The notes under the pieces are model-generated. The model did no database searches and was not told where the DNA came from. It was given only the letters and a program-made list of their open reading frames with translations. Positions 2,980 to 58,835 of a stretch of DNA of 64,000 bases are shown here, piece by piece. The DNA is taken from contig DASPZZ010000251.1 of the NCBI GenBank assembly GCA_035635995.1, positions 1,086 to 65,085 of the forward strand, written 5' to 3'. The position numbers and the translations under genes are program-made. Within the stretch, counting starts at the first letter, position 1, and each line of letters begins with the position of its first letter. The DNA comes from Candidatus Binatia bacterium (GTDB lineage Bacteria; Methylomirabilota; Methylomirabilia; Rokubacteriales; CSP1-6).

Positions 2980-4635
<1,656 letters not shown>

Positions 4636-45267: not shown

Positions 45268-46404
45268 ATGCCCAGAATCGCCCTCGAACCTCGGTTCCAG
45301 GTCGAATACCTGTCGATCCTCGACAGCGACGGAAACCTCGACACCGCGCTCGAGCCCAAGCTTGCCGACAAAGACCTGAGGTCGCTCTACCGCGCGATGC
45401 TGCTCGGGCGCCTCCTCGACGAGCGCATGGTGCGGCTCCAGCGCCAGGGACGCATCGGGACCTTCGCGCCGACCAAGGGCCAGGAGGCTTCCCAGCTGGG
45501 GAGCGCCTTCACCCTGCGGCCGAGCGACTGGATGGTGCCGTCGTTTCGCGAGACGGCGGCGATGATCTGGCGCGGCTGGCCGATCGAGAAGCTCCTGCTC
45601 TTCTTCGCGGGCCATCTCGAGGGGGGCCAGCCGGCGCCCGAGCAGCACGATCTGCCGATCACGATCCCGGTGGCGACCCAGCTCCCCCACGCGGTGGGCC
45701 TCGCCTACGCGGTTCAGTACCGGGGCGACGACGTGGTCGTCATGGCGTACTTCGGCGACGGCGCGACCTCCGAGGGCGACTTCCACGAGGCCCTGAACTT
45801 CGCGGGCGTCTGGCACGTCCCCATCGTCTTCGTCTGCCAGAACAACCAGTGGGCGATCTCGGTGCCGCTGAAGAAGCAGACGCACTCGCGCACGATCGCC
45901 CAGAAGGCGCTGGCGTACGGGCTGCCCGGCATCCAGGTGGACGGCAACGACGTCCTCGCCGTCTACGCCGCGTCGCGCGAGGCCGTCGATCGGGCGCGCG
46001 CCGGCGACGGCCCGACCCTGATCGAGTGCGTGACGTATCGCCTCGGGGTTCACACCACCGCCGACGACCCCACGAAGTACCGGACGGATGAAGAAGTCGC
46101 GATGTGGGAGCGGAAAGATCCCCTGACCCGCTTCCGGGCCTACCTGGAGAAGCGCAATTTGCTCGAGGAGGGTCTCGAGAAGGCGGTCGACGACGAGATC
46201 GCCGAGGCGGTGCGTCGCTTCGAGGCGACGCCGCCCACCGATCCGCTGACGATGTTCGACCACGTCTACGCCGAGCTCCCGCCGGACCTCCAAGCGCAGC
46301 GCGACGAGATGGCCGCTCGCGGGCAGACGCCTCCGGCGCAGCCCGACGCGACGCCGACGACGGGCGCCACGCCGATGCGCGGCCAGCGACTGACGCGGCG
46401 CTGA
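45268..46404 (+). CDS. 2-oxoacid dehydrogenase E1 component alpha subunit (pyruvate/branched-chain type, TPP-dependent)
   Basis: 378 aa with the TPP motif YFGDGATSEGDFHEALNFA...NNQWAIS, then YRLGVHTTADDP. Confidence 0.9.
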   Translation: MPRIALEPRFQVEYLSILDSDGNLDTALEPKLADKDLRSLYRAMLLGRLLDERMVRLQRQGRIGTFAPTKGQEASQLGSAFTLRPSDWMVPSFRETAAMIWRGWPIEKLLLFFAGHLEGGQPAPEQHDLPITIPVATQLPHAVGLAYAVQYRGDDVVVMAYFGDGATSEGDFHEALNFAGVWHVPIVFVCQNNQWAISVPLKKQTHSRTIAQKALAYGLPGIQVDGNDVLAVYAASREAVDRARAGDGPTLIECVTYRLGVHTTADDPTKYRTDEEVAMWERKDPLTRFRAYLEKRNLLEEGLEKAVDDEIAEAVRRFEATPPTDPLTMFDHVYAELPPDLQAQRDEMAARGQTPPAQPDATPTTGATPMRGQRLTRR

Positions 46405-46408
46405 CGCC

Positions 46409-47389
46409 ATGGCCAAGCTGAACATGGTCAAGGCGCTCAACCTGGCGCTCTTCCAGGAGATGGAGCGCGACGGTGACGTGCTCGTCCTGGGCGAGGACGT
46501 CGGCGTGGATGGCGGCGTCTTCCGCGTGACCGACGACCTGCAGCGGAAGTACGGCTCCCAGCGCGTCATCGACAGCCCGCTCGCCGAGGCGGCCATCATC
46601 GGCACCGCCGTCGGCATGGCGCTCTACGGCCTCAAGCCCGTTTGCGAGATCCAGTTCTCCGGCTTCGCCTTCCAGTGCTTCCACCAGATCGAGAACCACT
46701 GCGCGCGCTACCGGATGCGCTCGCAGGGACGCTTCCACGTCCCGATGGTGATTCGCATGCCGTACGGGGGAGGCGTTCGAGCCCTCGAGCACCATTCGGA
46801 ATCCGAGGAACAGTTCTACGCCCACATTCCCGGGCTGAAGATGGTCGTCCCGTCGGGCCCGCGCAATGCGCGCGCGCTGCTCGCGGCCGCCATCCGCGAT
46901 CCCGACCCCGTGATCTTCTTCGAGGCGAAGTCGCTCTATCACGCCGCCAAGGAAGAGGTCCCCGACGAGAGCGAGACCCTGCCGATCGGGCGGGCGCAGG
47001 TGGCGCGCGAGGGTGACGCCCTCACGCTGATCGCCTACGGCGCGATGCTCCGCGTGGCACTCGAGGCCGCCGACGTCCTCCGCGCCGAGGACGGGGTCGC
47101 GGTCGAGGTGATCGACCTGCTCACGGTCTCGCCGCTCGATCGCGAGACGCTCGTGACATCGGTCGGGAAGACGGGCCGGGCGGTCGTGGTCCACGAAGCG
47201 CCGCGGAGCTTCGGTCCGGGCGCCGAGATCGCCGCCTCGATCATGGACGGCGCGTTCCTCTCGCTCGAGGCGCCGGTGCGGCGCGTGGCCGCGCACGACG
47301 TGCCGTTCGTCGGCTTCGCCCGCGAGAAGGCGAACGTCCCGGACGTGCCGCGCGTCGTCGCCGCGGCCCGCGAGACCCTCGCGTTCTGA
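46409..47389 (+). CDS. 2-oxoacid dehydrogenase E1 component beta subunit
   Basis: 326 aa with VLGEDVGVDGGVFRVT, VIDSPLAEAAI and a transketolase-like C-terminal domain. Confidence 0.92.
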   Translation: MAKLNMVKALNLALFQEMERDGDVLVLGEDVGVDGGVFRVTDDLQRKYGSQRVIDSPLAEAAIIGTAVGMALYGLKPVCEIQFSGFAFQCFHQIENHCARYRMRSQGRFHVPMVIRMPYGGGVRALEHHSESEEQFYAHIPGLKMVVPSGPRNARALLAAAIRDPDPVIFFEAKSLYHAAKEEVPDESETLPIGRAQVAREGDALTLIAYGAMLRVALEAADVLRAEDGVAVEVIDLLTVSPLDRETLVTSVGKTGRAVVVHEAPRSFGPGAEIAASIMDGAFLSLEAPVRRVAAHDVPFVGFAREKANVPDVPRVVAAARETLAF

Positions 47390-47436
47390 GCGCGTGATGG
47401 CAGCGCGGGCCGCGGGCGAGGCGAGCGAGTAGCAGG

Positions 47437-48864
47437 ATGTCCCGGCCGTTCGCGCTTCCCGATCTGGGCGAGGGGCTCACCGAGGCCGAGATCGTCAAGG
47501 TGCTCGTCAATGAGGGCGACGTCCTTGCCGAGGACGCGCCGCTGCTCGAGGTCGAGACCGACAAGGCCACGGTCGAGATTCCATCGCCGTTCGCTGGGCG
47601 CGTGGCTCGCGTCCACGTCCAGCCCGGTCAGACCGTCAAGGTCGGTGATGTTCTGGTCACGTTCGATGACGCGGGAGCCCAGGCAGCGTCGGGGAAGGGG
47701 GGCGGGGGAGCGGGGGGCAGGCCTGCCCTCCGCTCCCCCGCCCCCCTTCCCCGACGGGAGTCTGAACTGCGGCCCGTCGGCGTGAGCCAGGCCTCGACCG
47801 GGTCCGCGGCTTCCCCTTCCACGCGAGGCGACGGGCCGGTGCCGGTACAGGCGAGGGCTCCAGCCGACGCGAGCAAAGGATCGGTAGCGGCGACGGCTTC
47901 CGGCGTGCGGGTGGGGCCGGTGCCGGCGACGCCGGCGACGCGGCGGCTTGCGCGGGAGCTCGGCGTGGACCTGGCGAGCGTGCGGGGGACGGGGCCGGGC
48001 GGGCGCGTGACGGACGATGATGTGCGCGCGGCGGGCGGCGGGACTCGGTCGAGCGCGCCGCCGGTGGTGGAGGAGCGTCAGGCTTCGGGGCGCGCGCCCG
48101 TCGCCAAGCCGCTGGCGCCGGTCGGCGTGGAGCCGCCGGCGCTCCCGCGGTTCGAGCAGTGGGGGCCGGTGGAGCGGCAGCCCCTGTCGCACCTGCGTCG
48201 CACCATCGCCGAGCGCATGACGCTGTCCGCCATGCTCATCCCCCACGTGACGCACTTCGATCGCGCCGACGTCACCGAGCTCGACGCGATCATCCGGCGT
48301 AACGTGGAGCCCGCGCGGGAGCGCGGGCTGACGCTCACCCTGACGAGCTTCCTCCTGAAGGCGGCCGCCCTCGCGCTCCGGGAGCATCCGCAGTTCAACG
48401 CGAGCCTCGACCCCGCGGCGGGCGAGCTGATCCTCAAGCGGTACCACCACCTGGGCGTGGCGGTGGCGACCGAGCGCGGCCTGATCGTCCCGGTCATTCG
48501 TGACGTGGACCGCAAGCCGCTCGTCGAGCTCCAGCGCGAGCTGGCGGCGCTGGCGCTGCGCGTCCGCGACGGCAAGGCGACGCTCGACGATCTGCGGGGC
48601 GGCACGTTCACGATCACCAACATCGGCGCGCTCGGCGGCACCGGCGCAATTCCGATCATCAACTACCCCGAGGTCGCCATCCTCGGTGTGGCCCGCGCGC
48701 GGGAGGAGCCCGTCGTGCACGAGGGGCAGATCGTGCCGCGCACGCTCCTGCCGATCTCGCTCACGTTCGACCACCGCGTCGCCGACGGCGCCGATGGCGC
48801 CCGCTTCGCCGCCGCGATCGTCCGGAGGCTCGAGCGCCCGGAGCAGCTGCTGCTAGAGTGGTAA
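47437..48864 (+). CDS. dihydrolipoamide acyltransferase E2 component
   Basis: 475 aa. It has a lipoyl domain (VETDKATVEIPSP), a long linker, the E3-binding domain (ATPATRRLARELGVDL) and a catalytic domain (LSLTFDHRVADGA). Confidence 0.92.
   Translation: MSRPFALPDLGEGLTEAEIVKVLVNEGDVLAEDAPLLEVETDKATVEIPSPFAGRVARVHVQPGQTVKVGDVLVTFDDAGAQAASGKGGGGAGGRPALRSPAPLPRRESELRPVGVSQASTGSAASPSTRGDGPVPVQARAPADASKGSVAATASGVRVGPVPATPATRRLARELGVDLASVRGTGPGGRVTDDDVRAAGGGTRSSAPPVVEERQASGRAPVAKPLAPVGVEPPALPRFEQWGPVERQPLSHLRRTIAERMTLSAMLIPHVTHFDRADVTELDAIIRRNVEPARERGLTLTLTSFLLKAAALALREHPQFNASLDPAAGELILKRYHHLGVAVATERGLIVPVIRDVDRKPLVELQRELAALALRVRDGKATLDDLRGGTFTITNIGALGGTGAIPIINYPEVAILGVARAREEPVVHEGQIVPRTLLPISLTFDHRVADGADGARFAAAIVRRLERPEQLLLEW
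47687..47756. repeat. 70-bp spacer-less near-perfect palindrome embedded in the E2 reading frame
   Basis: Positions i and 95443-i are complementary for all 35 pairs except 47714/47729 (G-T). The centre is CAGG|CCTG at 47721/47722. It encodes ...SGKGGGGAGGRPALRSPAPLPRR... in the lipoyl-to-PSBD linker. Confidence 0.92.
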
Positions 48865-48888: not shown

Positions 48889-49686
48889 ATGCCCGAGCGT
48901 AAAGACACCTGGTCGAGCGGCGACGACTACGAGCCCTATGTGGGCCGCTGGAGCCGCCGGGTCGCCCGTGAGCTCATAGGCTGGCTCGACGTGCCCGCGG
49001 GCCTCCGTTGGCTCGACGTCGGATGCGGCACCGGCGCCTTGAGCGAGACCATCGTCGCGCGCTGCTCGCCGCACGCGGTCGTCGGCGTCGACCCGTCCGA
49101 GCAGTATCTGGAGTACGCCCGGGCGCGCGTGACCGACCCGCGGGTCAGCTTCCGTGTCGGCGACGCCCAGGCGCTGCCCGTCAAGGACGGCGACCACGAC
49201 GTCGCGGTCTCCGGGCTGGTGCTGAACTTCGTGCCGGACCAGCCGCAGGCGGTGGCCGAGATGAGGCGCTCGCTGGCGGCCGGCGGAACCATGGCGGCGT
49301 ACGTCTGGGACTACGCGGGCGAGATGCAGCTCATGCGCCGCTTCTGGGACGCGGCCGTCGCCCTCGATCCCGAGGCGCTCGAGCTCGACGAGGGGCGGCG
49401 GTTTCCGAGCGCCCGCCCCGCGCCGCTGGTCGAGCTCTTCGAGTCAGCCGGGCTGACGAACGTGCGCGTGCTCGCGATCGACGTTCCGACGGTCTTCAAG
49501 GACTTCGACGACTACTGGTCGCCCTTCCTCGGCGGTCAGGCGCCCGCACCCGGGTACTGCATGTCGCTCAGCGAGGAGCGGCGCGCCGCGCTCCGCGAGC
49601 GGATCCGGTCGACCATGCCGAGCCATCCCGACGGCAGCATTCACCTGATCGCCCGCGCCTGGGCGGTCCGCGGCCTGGTCGAATGA
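48889..49686 (+). CDS. class I SAM-dependent methyltransferase
   Basis: 265 aa. SAM motif I is WLDVGCGTGAL and the post-I motif is VVGVDPS. A strong RBS GAGGAGGAGG lies upstream. Confidence 0.85.
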   Translation: MPERKDTWSSGDDYEPYVGRWSRRVARELIGWLDVPAGLRWLDVGCGTGALSETIVARCSPHAVVGVDPSEQYLEYARARVTDPRVSFRVGDAQALPVKDGDHDVAVSGLVLNFVPDQPQAVAEMRRSLAAGGTMAAYVWDYAGEMQLMRRFWDAAVALDPEALELDEGRRFPSARPAPLVELFESAGLTNVRVLAIDVPTVFKDFDDYWSPFLGGQAPAPGYCMSLSEERRAALRERIRSTMPSHPDGSIHLIARAWAVRGLVE

Positions 49687-49700
49687 GGGGCTGATCGGCC

Positions 49701-51095
49701 GTGGTGATGGGCGACCTCCTCGTCGAGGTGGACGTGGCCGTCGTGGGTGGCGGCCCAGGCGGCTACTCGGCCGCATTCCGCTGCGCCGAGCTGGGGCTCG
49801 AGACGGTCGTCGTGGACGCCGGCAAGCGGCTCGGCGGCGCCTGCCTCTGGGAGGGCTGCATCCCGTCGAAGGCGCTGCTCCACGTCGCCGCGCTGATCGA
49901 GGACGCCGAGCGCGCTCGCGAGCTCGGCGTCGACTTCGGCGAGCCGCGCGTGTCGCTCGACCCGTTGCGCAAGTGGAAGGCCGAGCGGGTCGTCGGCCGG
50001 CTCGCGCGGGGTCTCGCGGCCGTCGCGAAGGCCAAGGGGGTCGAGGTGATCGGCGGCCGCGCGGTCTTCGAGAGCTCGCGCGAGCTGCGCGTCGAGGGTG
50101 ACGAGCCGCAGAAGGTGCGCTTCAAGCACGCGATCATCGCGACGGGCTCGGCGCCGGCCGGCCTGCCCGGCCTTGCGCTCTCGAGCGATCGCGTCATCGA
50201 CTCGACGGCGGCGCTCGAGCTCGGCGAGGTGCCGGAGCGGCTCCTCGTGATCGGCGGCGGCTACATCGGCCTCGAGCTGGGTCAGGTCTACGCCGCGCTG
50301 GGCAGTGAGATCACCCTCGCCGAGATGACCGATGGGCTCCTGCCGGGCGTGGACCGAGCGCTCGTCCAGCCGCTCGCCCGCCGATGCGAGAAGCTCTTCA
50401 CGAAGATTCGGCTGGGCACGAAGGTGACGTCGCTCCTCGAGAAAGGCTCGGCGATCGAGACGCGCTTCGACGGTAACGACGTCGCCCTCTTCGACCGCGT
50501 GCTGGTCGCGGTCGGCCGGCGTCCGGCGAGCGCCGGACTGGGCCTGGAGCACACGCGCGTGAGCGCCGACGCGCGCGGCTTCGTCTCCGTGGACGACCGC
50601 TGCCGGACGGCCGACCCCTCGATCTACGCCGTCGGCGACGTCACCGGCGAGCCGATGCTCGCCCACCGCGCGATGCGCCAGGGTAAGGTCGCCGCCGAGG
50701 TGATCGCGGGGCGCCCGGCGGCATTCGACAATGTCGTCGTCCCGGCGGTCGTGTTCACCGACCCCGAGGTCGCCTGGTGCGGGCTCACCGAGGCCGAGGC
50801 GGCGCGCGAGGGTCGCAAGGTCACGATCGCCAGGCGGGAGTGGGCCGCCTCGGGCCGCGCCCTGACGCTCGGGCGCAGCGACGGCCTGACGAAGCTCGTC
50901 GCGGACCCGGACTCCGGCCGCGTCCTCGGCGTCGGCATCGTGGGCCCTGGCGCCGGCGAGCTCATCGCCGAAGGGGCGCTCGCCATCGAGACCGCGCTCA
51001 CCGTCGAGGATCTCGCGGCGACGATCCACACCCACCCCACCCTCTCGGAGACGCTGATGGAGGCCGCCGAGTCGCTTCTGCGATCGGCTGGCTGA
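49701..51095 (+). CDS. lpdA: dihydrolipoyl dehydrogenase (E3)
   Basis: 464 aa with VVGGGPGGY, the redox-active GGACLWEGCIPSK and C-terminal HTHPTLSE. Confidence 0.92.
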   Translation: MVMGDLLVEVDVAVVGGGPGGYSAAFRCAELGLETVVVDAGKRLGGACLWEGCIPSKALLHVAALIEDAERARELGVDFGEPRVSLDPLRKWKAERVVGRLARGLAAVAKAKGVEVIGGRAVFESSRELRVEGDEPQKVRFKHAIIATGSAPAGLPGLALSSDRVIDSTAALELGEVPERLLVIGGGYIGLELGQVYAALGSEITLAEMTDGLLPGVDRALVQPLARRCEKLFTKIRLGTKVTSLLEKGSAIETRFDGNDVALFDRVLVAVGRRPASAGLGLEHTRVSADARGFVSVDDRCRTADPSIYAVGDVTGEPMLAHRAMRQGKVAAEVIAGRPAAFDNVVVPAVVFTDPEVAWCGLTEAEAAREGRKVTIARREWAASGRALTLGRSDGLTKLVADPDSGRVLGVGIVGPGAGELIAEGALAIETALTVEDLAATIHTHPTLSETLMEAAESLLRSAG

Positions 51096-58123: not shown

Positions 58124-58835
58124 GCCGCGGCTCGGACGGATCATCGCTCTTCTCGCGGCGGTCGCGGCGCTCGTGACCGCCGCCGGGACCGGACCCGTCG
58201 AGGCTCACGAGCCCGACGACCGCCTGCCGGCGGCGGTCACGATGGACTTCGTGCCGCCGCTCCCCGGAAGTTACCCGCTGCACGCGATCATGCGGGCGCC
58301 GGATGGGCCGGTGCTCGATCTCGACGGCCGGCGCCTGCCGCTGTCGCGTTTCACCGCGGGGAAGATCACGCTTCTGGGCTTCATCTACACGTCGTGCGCC
58401 GATGCCCGGGGCTGTCCCCTCGCCTACCAGGTCTTCCACACGGTGCGGCATCGCGTGTCGGAGGACCCCGAGCTCCGCCACCGCGTCCGCCTGGTGTCGC
58501 TCAGCTTCGATCCGGCCCGGGACACCCCGGCGGTGATGCGCCACTACGCGGCGGCCGCCCCGCGAAACGGCGTGGAGTGGGCCTTCCTCACCACCGAGAT
58601 GCCCCGGACGCTGGTGCCGATTCTCGACGGCTTCGGCCAGGACGTGCGCGTCGAGCTCGACTCGCGCGCTCGGCCGGCGGGCCCGCTCGCGCACGTGCTC
58701 AAGGTCTTCCTGCTCGACGAGCGGGCGATCGTCCGCGAGATCTACACCACCGCGTACCTTTTTCCCGAGGTCATCCTGAACGACATCAAGACGCTTCGGC
58801 TCTTGGACGGGGGCCAGCGGAGGGTCATCCCGTGA
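58092..58835 (+). CDS. SCO1/SenC-family thioredoxin-fold (copper chaperone-like) protein
   Basis: 247 aa with a TM/signal segment, LLGFIYTSCADARGCPL (a C-x5-C instead of the usual CxxxC), SLSFDPARDTP and HVLKVFLLD. The ATG lies 32 nt inside the preceding gene. Confidence 0.75.
   Translation: MDSSAPPRSAEPRLGRIIALLAAVAALVTAAGTGPVEAHEPDDRLPAAVTMDFVPPLPGSYPLHAIMRAPDGPVLDLDGRRLPLSRFTAGKITLLGFIYTSCADARGCPLAYQVFHTVRHRVSEDPELRHRVRLVSLSFDPARDTPAVMRHYAAAAPRNGVEWAFLTTEMPRTLVPILDGFGQDVRVELDSRARPAGPLAHVLKVFLLDERAIVREIYTTAYLFPEVILNDIKTLRLLDGGQRRVIP

Follow-up and report, generated by a model that had tools for sequence, protein, structure and literature searches.

How does a long palindrome with no spacer come to lie in the coding sequence of a metabolic enzyme, and what keeps it there? 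The question is raised by a 64,000-nucleotide (nt) stretch of DNA assigned to a Candidatus Binatia bacterium (GenBank assembly GCA_035635995.1, contig DASPZZ010000251.1, positions 1,086 to 65,085; here called the window), in which the gene for an E2 dihydrolipoamide acyltransferase carries a 70-bp palindrome just after the lipoyl domain. We show here that this element is real, specific to one locus, and confined to one clade, that its arms covary with strictly Watson-Crick pairing, and that related loci carry nested deletions of it. We consider it probable that the palindrome represents a genuine inverted repeat in the DNA that has been passed on vertically, with arms maintained by template switching and with recurrent trimming, and that the window copy is one of its derivatives.

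A spacer-less palindrome in an E2 linker

The two arms of the palindrome (47687-47756) are complementary at 34 of 35 pairs (97%) and are separated by 0 nt. Together they span codons 84 to 107 of E2, with the product SGKGGGGAGGRPALRSPAPLPRR. An inverted-repeat search returned the same coordinates, pairing, and lack of spacer as a preliminary description of this DNA, and translation of the open reading frame (ORF) and Pfam searches agree with that description on the encoded peptide and on its in-frame position in the linker between the lipoyl domain and the E3-binding (peripheral subunit-binding, or PSBD) domain. When a 23-nt piece of an arm was compared with the entire window at up to 3 mismatches, the only 2 matches were the two arms (0 expected; 0 of 100 shuffles). 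The next-best inverted repeats in the window are 16 to 18 nt at 88 to 100%, or longer ones at 70 to 78%, and by our own estimate the chance of a spacer-less palindrome with 34 of 35 pairs in 64 kb of 71% G+C DNA is about 1e-12. The runner-up hairpin in the window is a perfect 16- to 18-bp inverted repeat with a 36- to 40-nt spacer at 58171-58242. The extreme stability anticipated in the preliminary description is borne out as a prediction: the RNA fold is predicted at -92.2 kcal/mol (z = -9.3; 0 of 200 shuffles as good), and the DNA fold at -51.7 kcal/mol, likewise about 9 standard deviations past shuffles.

Other assemblies contain the site as well. A contig from a different assembly in the European Nucleotide Archive (L191; 20,386 bp) shares 3,428 bp with the window without a single difference, palindrome included, and encodes the same E2 protein. 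Two soil-metagenome contigs of the Joint Genome Institute (JGI), L001 and L002, match the window at 99.0 to 99.7% identity over approximately 5.5 to 6.5 kb and carry variants of the site. In L001, 44-nt arms (98% complementary) enclose a 15-nt loop, for 103 nt in total; in L002, 33-nt arms that are 100% complementary flank a 4-nt center. The worry that the palindrome might be absent from independent assemblies is thereby answered.

A family of linker hairpins confined to one clade

In a protein alignment of the nearest homologs, many orthologs share the arm peptides ASG[KR]GGG (left) and PxPRRE/QP (right) with a variable center between them, and some are without the entire arm-center-arm segment. 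DNA of E2 loci was taken from GTDB genomes and JGI metagenomes, and the linkers were scanned for hairpins. Across the clade, hairpins with stems of 18 to 44 bp and loops of 10 to 23 nt occupy the same linker position, and their stem sequences differ by lineage yet remain paired. Type A hairpins have a 41-bp stem and the 15-nt loop TTCGGAACCCCACTC (L135, L004, L196, L088, L090, L146, L194, L192, L193, and L195; L093 has an imperfect form). Type B hairpins have a stem of 33 to 40 bp and the 10-nt loop AGAAC[G/T]ACGA (L085, L086, L141, L003, L091, and L007). In type C hairpins, a stem of 18 to 21 bp carries a 23-nt loop related to that of type A (L006, L097, L009, and L113), and L012 has a 23-bp stem.

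Two loci in this survey deserve separate mention. The E2 gene of L141 (1400-2100), which has a type B hairpin, shows internal deletions in the lipoyl and PSBD regions and may be misassembled or degenerate. A distant E2 (43% identity) on a contig of a Planctomycetia metagenome-assembled genome (L050:274-366; JANNQE010000033) has an unrelated, imperfect hairpin directly after the lipoyl domain; its 32-bp stem contains 5 mismatches, and its loop is 29 nt long. Here a palindrome may have lodged independently in the same linker.

Neighbor-joining (NJ) trees were generated from the catalytic domain at the protein level and from the nucleotides of the lipoyl and catalytic domains. All hairpin-bearing loci fall in one Rokubacteria/Methylomirabilota clade, with type C and L012 basal and the long-stem types forming the crown group. 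Members that have no hairpin or only a remnant (L005, L010, L087, L092, L095, L096, and L111/L115) are scattered within the clade, a pattern that fits one origin, vertical inheritance, and repeated loss. The preliminary description proposed comparing orthologs for an empty site. Empty and short sites do exist, but they are secondary losses, the hairpin being ancestral in the clade. Basal members have shorter stems and longer loops, and crown members have longer stems and shorter loops, consistent with growth of the arms at the expense of the loop. Type B occurs at two non-sister positions in the tree. The upstream (lipoyl) and downstream (catalytic) NJ trees share their broad topology and gave no clear evidence of recombination at the hairpin.

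The element is also specific to its locus. A scan of 619 kb of Rokubacteria DNA for hairpins with 18 bp or more and at most 1 mismatch gave 14, of which 9 are the E2 linker site, and in 320 kb of DNA from the hairpin-bearing clade, all hairpins of at least 19 bp sit in the E2 linker. The type A loop motif was found in 9 of 162 loci, each time at this site, and no other copy of an arm or loop was found in the 64-kb window, the 320 kb of clade DNA, or the 162 loci. A search of a protein database with the hairpin-encoded peptide gave no candidate sharing a word with it, probably on account of the low complexity of the peptide, and is uninformative as to copies in other genes. Elsewhere, L015 (3099-3181) and L026 (7796-7879), which belong to a Rokubacteria clade without the linker hairpin, have a perfect 25-bp stem (GGGGTCAGGTCTTGCAATCACACAT) with a 33- to 34-nt loop approximately 2.2 to 2.5 kb upstream of E2.

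The arms change together

Paired cells make up 95% of the type A alignment, in which both sides have changed at 15 of the 41 pairs (0 of 500 shuffles; 0 to 4 in controls with slid partners). For type B, 12 of 39 pairs covary. Paired changes are found even between very close relatives. Over 7,422 nt, 46 substitutions separate L085 from L086 (99.4% identity), two of which fall at the partner positions 3257 (G/A) and 3326 (C/T). At 47714/47729, the window has G·T where L001 has G-C and L002 has A-T, at 99.0 to 99.7% identity. By our own rough estimate, the chance of each such coincidence at low divergence is about 1e-3.

Strong covariation is usually taken as proof of a selected RNA helix. Such a helix would be expected to tolerate wobble pairs. 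The 598 pairs counted in 19 distinct hairpins comprise 585 Watson-Crick pairs, 9 A·C mismatches, 2 G·T pairs, and 2 other combinations; G·T is thus not above A·C, although these numbers are small. Fast correction at the DNA level could mask any tolerance of G·U. Because pairing is strictly Watson-Crick and paired changes appear at less than 1% divergence, the covariation is probably better explained by copying between the arms at the DNA level.

Template switching is reported to homogenize the arms of inverted repeats, to invert their spacers, to expand repeats, and to make and maintain hairpins (PMC8604942, PMC5941160, PMC8794818, PMC7202029). An inverted spacer is present here too: reverse-complementing the type A loop gives exactly the loop of L001, GAGTGGGGTTCCGAA. 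From the strict Watson-Crick pairing, the paired changes at less than 1% divergence, the inverted spacer, and these published footprints, we infer that template switching during replication is the proximate mechanism that, in the main, keeps the arms complementary.

We propose that an ancestor of the clade gained an inverted repeat able to fold into a hairpin close behind the lipoyl domain, in a part of E2 that would tolerate almost any peptide rich in Gly, Pro, Ala, and Arg. The stem would then be nearly neutral at the protein level. A change in one arm would be copied onto the other by template switching between them (quasipalindrome correction), a process that could also invert the spacer and lengthen the arms, while slippage or hairpin processing would repeatedly trim or remove the hairpin.

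The window copy is a derivative that has lost its center

Compared with L001, exactly 33 nt are missing from the middle of the window copy, namely the top 6 bp of each arm and a 21-nt center, and the loss is symmetric about the dyad. L002 has a 33-nt central deletion too. In L089, approximately 60 nt have been deleted from the center of an L135-like hairpin; in L087, the loop and right arm are gone; L005 and L010 retain only short remnants; and in P0011, P0013, P0018, and P0044 the hairpin is gone altogether. The instability foreseen for such a palindrome is therefore seen in the relatives, where the site is a hotspot for central, one-arm, and complete deletions. Out-of-frame deletions are found in L129 (3229-3300) and L143 (3229-3300), that in L129 having removed 41 nt of the left arm between TCGG repeats. 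These two may represent pseudogenes or minority variants, or the structure, being difficult to sequence, may have been assembled wrongly.

The spacer-less form in the window is thus a derived one, what is left, after loss of the center, of a near-perfect, loop-bearing hairpin of 80 to 100 nt of the kind ancestral in the clade. The spacer would first have been inverted, as in L001, and the 33-nt central deletion would then have left a loop-less 35-bp stem; the lineage of the window and L001 is the only one seen with an inverted spacer. We find the window copy best described as a decayed allele of the clade hairpin in which the 35-bp stem is still kept complementary. Since it has no loop, whatever the loop does in relatives is impossible here. 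The stem itself is dispensable in many relatives.

An invariant loop

In the 11 distinct type A sequences, the loop and the adjacent closing positions form an invariant run of 18 nt. In the adjacent lipoyl domain, whose protein sequence is highly conserved, the longest such run is 10 nt, and 15 of 61 synonymous third positions (25%) are invariant. Given that fraction, the probability that all five third positions of the loop codons would be invariant is about 9e-4. Two loop codons (GGA and CCA) end in A in a genome of 71% G+C. The 15 nt are translated as FGTPL in most lineages, as SEPHS in L093 and L094, and, inverted, as EWGSE in L001. With three coding contexts for the same 15 nt, the constraint appears to lie on the nucleotides of the loop and not on its peptide.

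Among 120 protein-cluster representatives, loop signatures were found 20 times in the usual frame, once in another frame, and once inverted. This skew of 20 : 1 : 1 suggests that the constraint is specific to one strand. Invariance at the nucleotide level implies that the intact element has a sequence-specific role as nucleic acid in the relatives, most simply in the operon mRNA, and that this role would be lost in the window copy. A search within the operon for a pairing partner of the loop gave a single recurrent complement, the 7-mer AGTGGGG, in the codons of a conserved EQWGP motif. This match to loop nucleotides CCCCACT lies in the same E2 gene at all loci examined, approximately 440 to 570 nt downstream of the hairpin start, and is probably a coincidence of the conserved protein motif.

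Weighing the explanations

Several observations sit poorly with a hairpin that is maintained by template switching and is otherwise neutral. The skew in loop orientation and frame fits a strand-specific constraint better than free flipping, and the hairpin persists across E2 genes that are 20 to 30% divergent despite deletion pressure. Seven type A lineages retain a C·A or C·C mismatch at a fixed distance of 8 bp below the loop (for example, L004:3014/3044), although many other stem positions have changed with compensation; under free correction this is unexpected. The invariant loop points to purifying selection, which makes neutrality of the whole element unlikely. The trees, moreover, are unbootstrapped NJ trees from metagenome contigs. 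We tentatively entertain, as a live possibility, that the intact element is an undescribed in-frame cis-acting element: a stem of approximately 41 bp with a fixed mismatch and the loop TTCGGAACCCCACTC, which a protein or RNA factor may read on the operon mRNA or on extruded DNA and which may control processing, stability, or translation of the E1-E2-E3 transcript. Template switching would then keep the long stem perfect, and the window copy would be a natural loss-of-loop allele.

Explanations that dispense with the hairpin as an inherited element fare far worse. Fold-back events can yield perfect palindromes, and the frameshifting deletions in L129 and L143 could be errors, but an artifact of assembly, amplification, or sequencing is extremely improbable: just 35 nt are inverted, the frame is intact, the flanks are collinear with orthologs, the identical sequence occurs in a second assembly, and compensated differences distinguish the lineage-specific versions found on more than 20 independent contigs, which come from different projects. 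We give practically no credence to the idea that complementarity is a by-product of coding a Gly-rich and then a Pro-rich stretch of linker, GGN and CCN codons being complementary. The left arm does encode a Gly run and the right arm a Pro-rich run, but 33 to 41 consecutive pairs match at every codon position, synonymous positions and codons for other residues included; pairing is restored after substitutions; shuffles that preserve composition never match the observed pairing; and the covariation in types A and B is already inconsistent with it. It is very unlikely that the hairpin arose when a mobile palindromic element, of the type of miniature inverted-repeat transposable elements (MITEs), REPINs, or Rickettsia palindromic elements, inserted a copy of itself in frame. 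Such an origin would account for an in-frame palindromic insert that is missing from some orthologs and whose length is within the range of REPINs and MITEs. Against it stand the failure to find a second copy of arm or loop in the DNA searched, the restriction of carriers to one clade and one site, and the combination of variable stems with a constant loop, the reverse of a transposon with conserved terminal repeats. The loop motif does match viral contigs 28 times, but with unrelated flanks, with no flanking stem, and no more often than the number expected by chance (our own rough estimate).

Two further readings assign the hairpin a function. The preliminary description took the stem for a likely ribosome roadblock or RNase III target, and its interpretation as a whole is partly supported. 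Under such a reading, the stem, in the window as elsewhere, would be a selected mRNA structure, acting as an RNase III site, as a barrier to 3' exonucleases that sets the E1:E2:E3 ratio, or as a ribosome pause. The conserved position, the covarying stems, the invariant loop in three coding contexts, the strong bias of the loop to one strand, the predicted folding energy of -92 kcal/mol, and a compensated pair in the window lineage even after loss of the loop all speak for it. We nevertheless find it rather unlikely, since G·U is not tolerated above A·C mismatches (2 versus 9 in 598 pairs), several stems are 100% perfect although a single mismatch in 41 bp is implausibly visible to selection, paired double changes at 0.3 to 0.6% divergence are too fast for independent mutation and selection, the hairpin is lost or truncated in roughly a third of the clade lineages, and there is no terminator-like tail, promoter, or match to an Rfam family. 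The other reading makes the hairpin a DNA site in cis, cruciform or single-stranded, whose loop would be read by a DNA-binding or DNA-processing protein, with the linker merely a permissive home. Strictly Watson-Crick pairing, a loop that is intact after inversion in L001, and conservation of the loop whatever the reading frame agree with this, but the heavy orientation bias is not required of a strand-symmetric site, no candidate protein or known type of site matches, and the hairpin is single copy at each locus with no link to neighboring genes seen. A site of this kind strikes us as quite unlikely.

Comparison with known elements

Searches for familiar signals were negative. No terminator-like site was found in 47300-48100, where the stem is followed by GGGAGTCTGAAC with no T/U run, and no promoter-like site was found at the hairpin region. 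With permissive thresholds, Rfam searches of the window and of loop-keeping relatives gave only look-alikes of miRNA precursors, at 22 to 45 bits versus gathering thresholds of 58 to 168. On reading the linkers, we found no conserved slippery sequence upstream of the stem that would point to programmed frameshifting or bypass; the frame is open in nearly all relatives. The hairpin resembles Rfam-type cis-regulatory RNAs in its covarying stem, invariant apical loop, and fixed position in the operon mRNA, but its stem is far longer and more perfect, G·U is nearly absent, and the element is embedded in coding sequence and dispensable in many lineages.

The closest parallel in mechanism is to the quasipalindromes shaped by template switching in Escherichia coli, yeast, and proteobacteria, with which the hairpin shares arm homogenization, coupled changes, spacer inversion, and arm expansion (PMC7202029, PMC5941160, PMC8604942, PMC8794818). 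The arms of those described are mostly approximately 5 to 15 bp, whereas the E2 hairpin has 33 to 44 bp, lies in a coding gene, and is inherited across a clade; its nucleotide-invariant spacer and persistent internal mismatch go beyond what template switching alone would give.

The size of the site, 70 to 103 bp, is below that of palindromes that are inviable or cannot be propagated in E. coli, and the 70 bp of the window copy are well below it. Palindromes become less stable with longer, more similar arms and with shorter spacers (PMC7999016). Like the long palindromes cleaved by SbcCD in E. coli (PMC7999016), the hairpin has long, similar arms and a short spacer or none, and its relatives show central and one-arm deletions; unlike them, it is shorter and has been retained naturally over long evolutionary time.

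Rickettsia palindromic elements and MITEs are multicopy mobile families of conserved sequence. The E2 hairpin shares with them a palindrome that is translated in frame and borne in a surface or linker region, and the ORF runs unbroken through it in the window and in most relatives, but it occupies a single locus and has variable stems where those families have many copies and conserved terminal repeats. Repetitive extragenic palindromic (REP) sequences lie outside genes, number tens to hundreds of copies, and are tied to RAYT transposases (PMC3333891, PMC3479197). A hairpin unit of approximately 70 to 100 nt and a G+C-rich stem are common to REP/REPIN sequences (PMC3333891, PMC3479197) and the E2 hairpin. 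The latter differs from REPs, REPINs, and bacterial interspersed mosaic elements (BIMEs) in lying within an ORF, in frame, and at one locus; in the DNA searched it is neither extragenic, nor present in many copies, nor tied to a RAYT transposase.

Gene neighborhood of the palindrome

The palindrome and the operon that hosts it are laid out in Table 1. The methyltransferase gene keeps its place between the E2 and E3 genes in related loci. A gene for Ku (PF02735; 43392-45227) ends 40 nt upstream of the E1 alpha gene, as it also does in L001 and L002; the presence of this nonhomologous end-joining factor beside a break-prone palindrome may well be a coincidence. Within the E3 gene, a 14-bp palindrome (GACGCCGAGCGCGC, with a 2-nt center) at 49902-49931 encodes DAERARELGV, and at least 8 related loci have it in the corresponding place. 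The NCBI label of the identical protein is Candidatus Binatia, but E2 and its neighbors nest within sequences of Rokubacteria/Methylomirabilota, and for this reason the taxonomic label of the bin may be wrong.

Table 1. The palindrome, its host gene, and the surrounding operon in the window
Feature	Position	Strand	Basis and remarks
Left, G-rich palindrome arm	47687-47721	+	Inverted-repeat search; 35 nt; encodes SGKGGGGAGGR
Right, C-rich palindrome arm	47722-47756	+	Inverted-repeat search; 35 nt; encodes PALRSPAPLPRR
G of the sole mismatched pair	47714	+	Opposite T47729; the pair is G-C in L001 and A-T in L002
T of the sole mismatched pair	47729	+	Opposite G47714
Dyad center, the junction of the symmetric 33-nt central deletion relative to the 103-nt hairpin of L001	47721-47722	+	Alignment; sizes of arms and loop
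CCC CGA CGG GAG (PRRE), base of the right arm and conserved 3' flank	47751-47762	+	PRRE/QP common to hairpin-bearing and many hairpin-less orthologs
E2 dihydrolipoamide acyltransferase gene, host of the palindrome	47437-48864	+	ORF, 475 amino acids (aa); Pfam; 100% identical to P0001
Lipoyl domain, aa 5-75	47449-47661	+	Pfam PF00364 Biotin_lipoyl, E = 2.4e-20
Interdomain linker, aa 77-161, rich in Gly/Pro/Ala/Ser/Arg	47665-47919	+	Hypervariable across orthologs (alignment)
E3-binding (PSBD) domain, aa 162-197	47920-48027	+	Pfam PF02817 E3_binding
Catalytic acyltransferase domain, aa 245-473	48169-48855	+	Pfam PF00198 2-oxoacid_dh
E1 alpha gene, same operon	45268-46404	+	Pfam E1_dh
E1 beta gene	46409-47389	+	Pfam Transket_pyr and Transketolase_C
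SAM-dependent methyltransferase gene between E2 and E3	48889-49686	+	Pfam Methyltransf_11/25
E3 dihydrolipoamide dehydrogenase gene	49701-51095	+	Pfam Pyr_redox_2 and Pyr_redox_dim

Implications

Full-text searches of open-access papers turned up no earlier account of palindromes or hairpins for E2 linkers or for Rokubacteria. In one gene of one clade, the site brings together homogenized arms, an inverted spacer, arms that have probably grown, and deletions of the center or of one arm, and it offers a natural comparative series for the persistence of long palindromes in bacteria. It also calls for caution in inferring RNA structure from covariation. The frame-independent invariance of the loop suggests that coding linkers of multidomain enzymes can harbor functional nucleic-acid elements. 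If true, the 2-oxoacid dehydrogenase operons of an abundant soil phylum that is still uncultured would possess a new regulatory feature.

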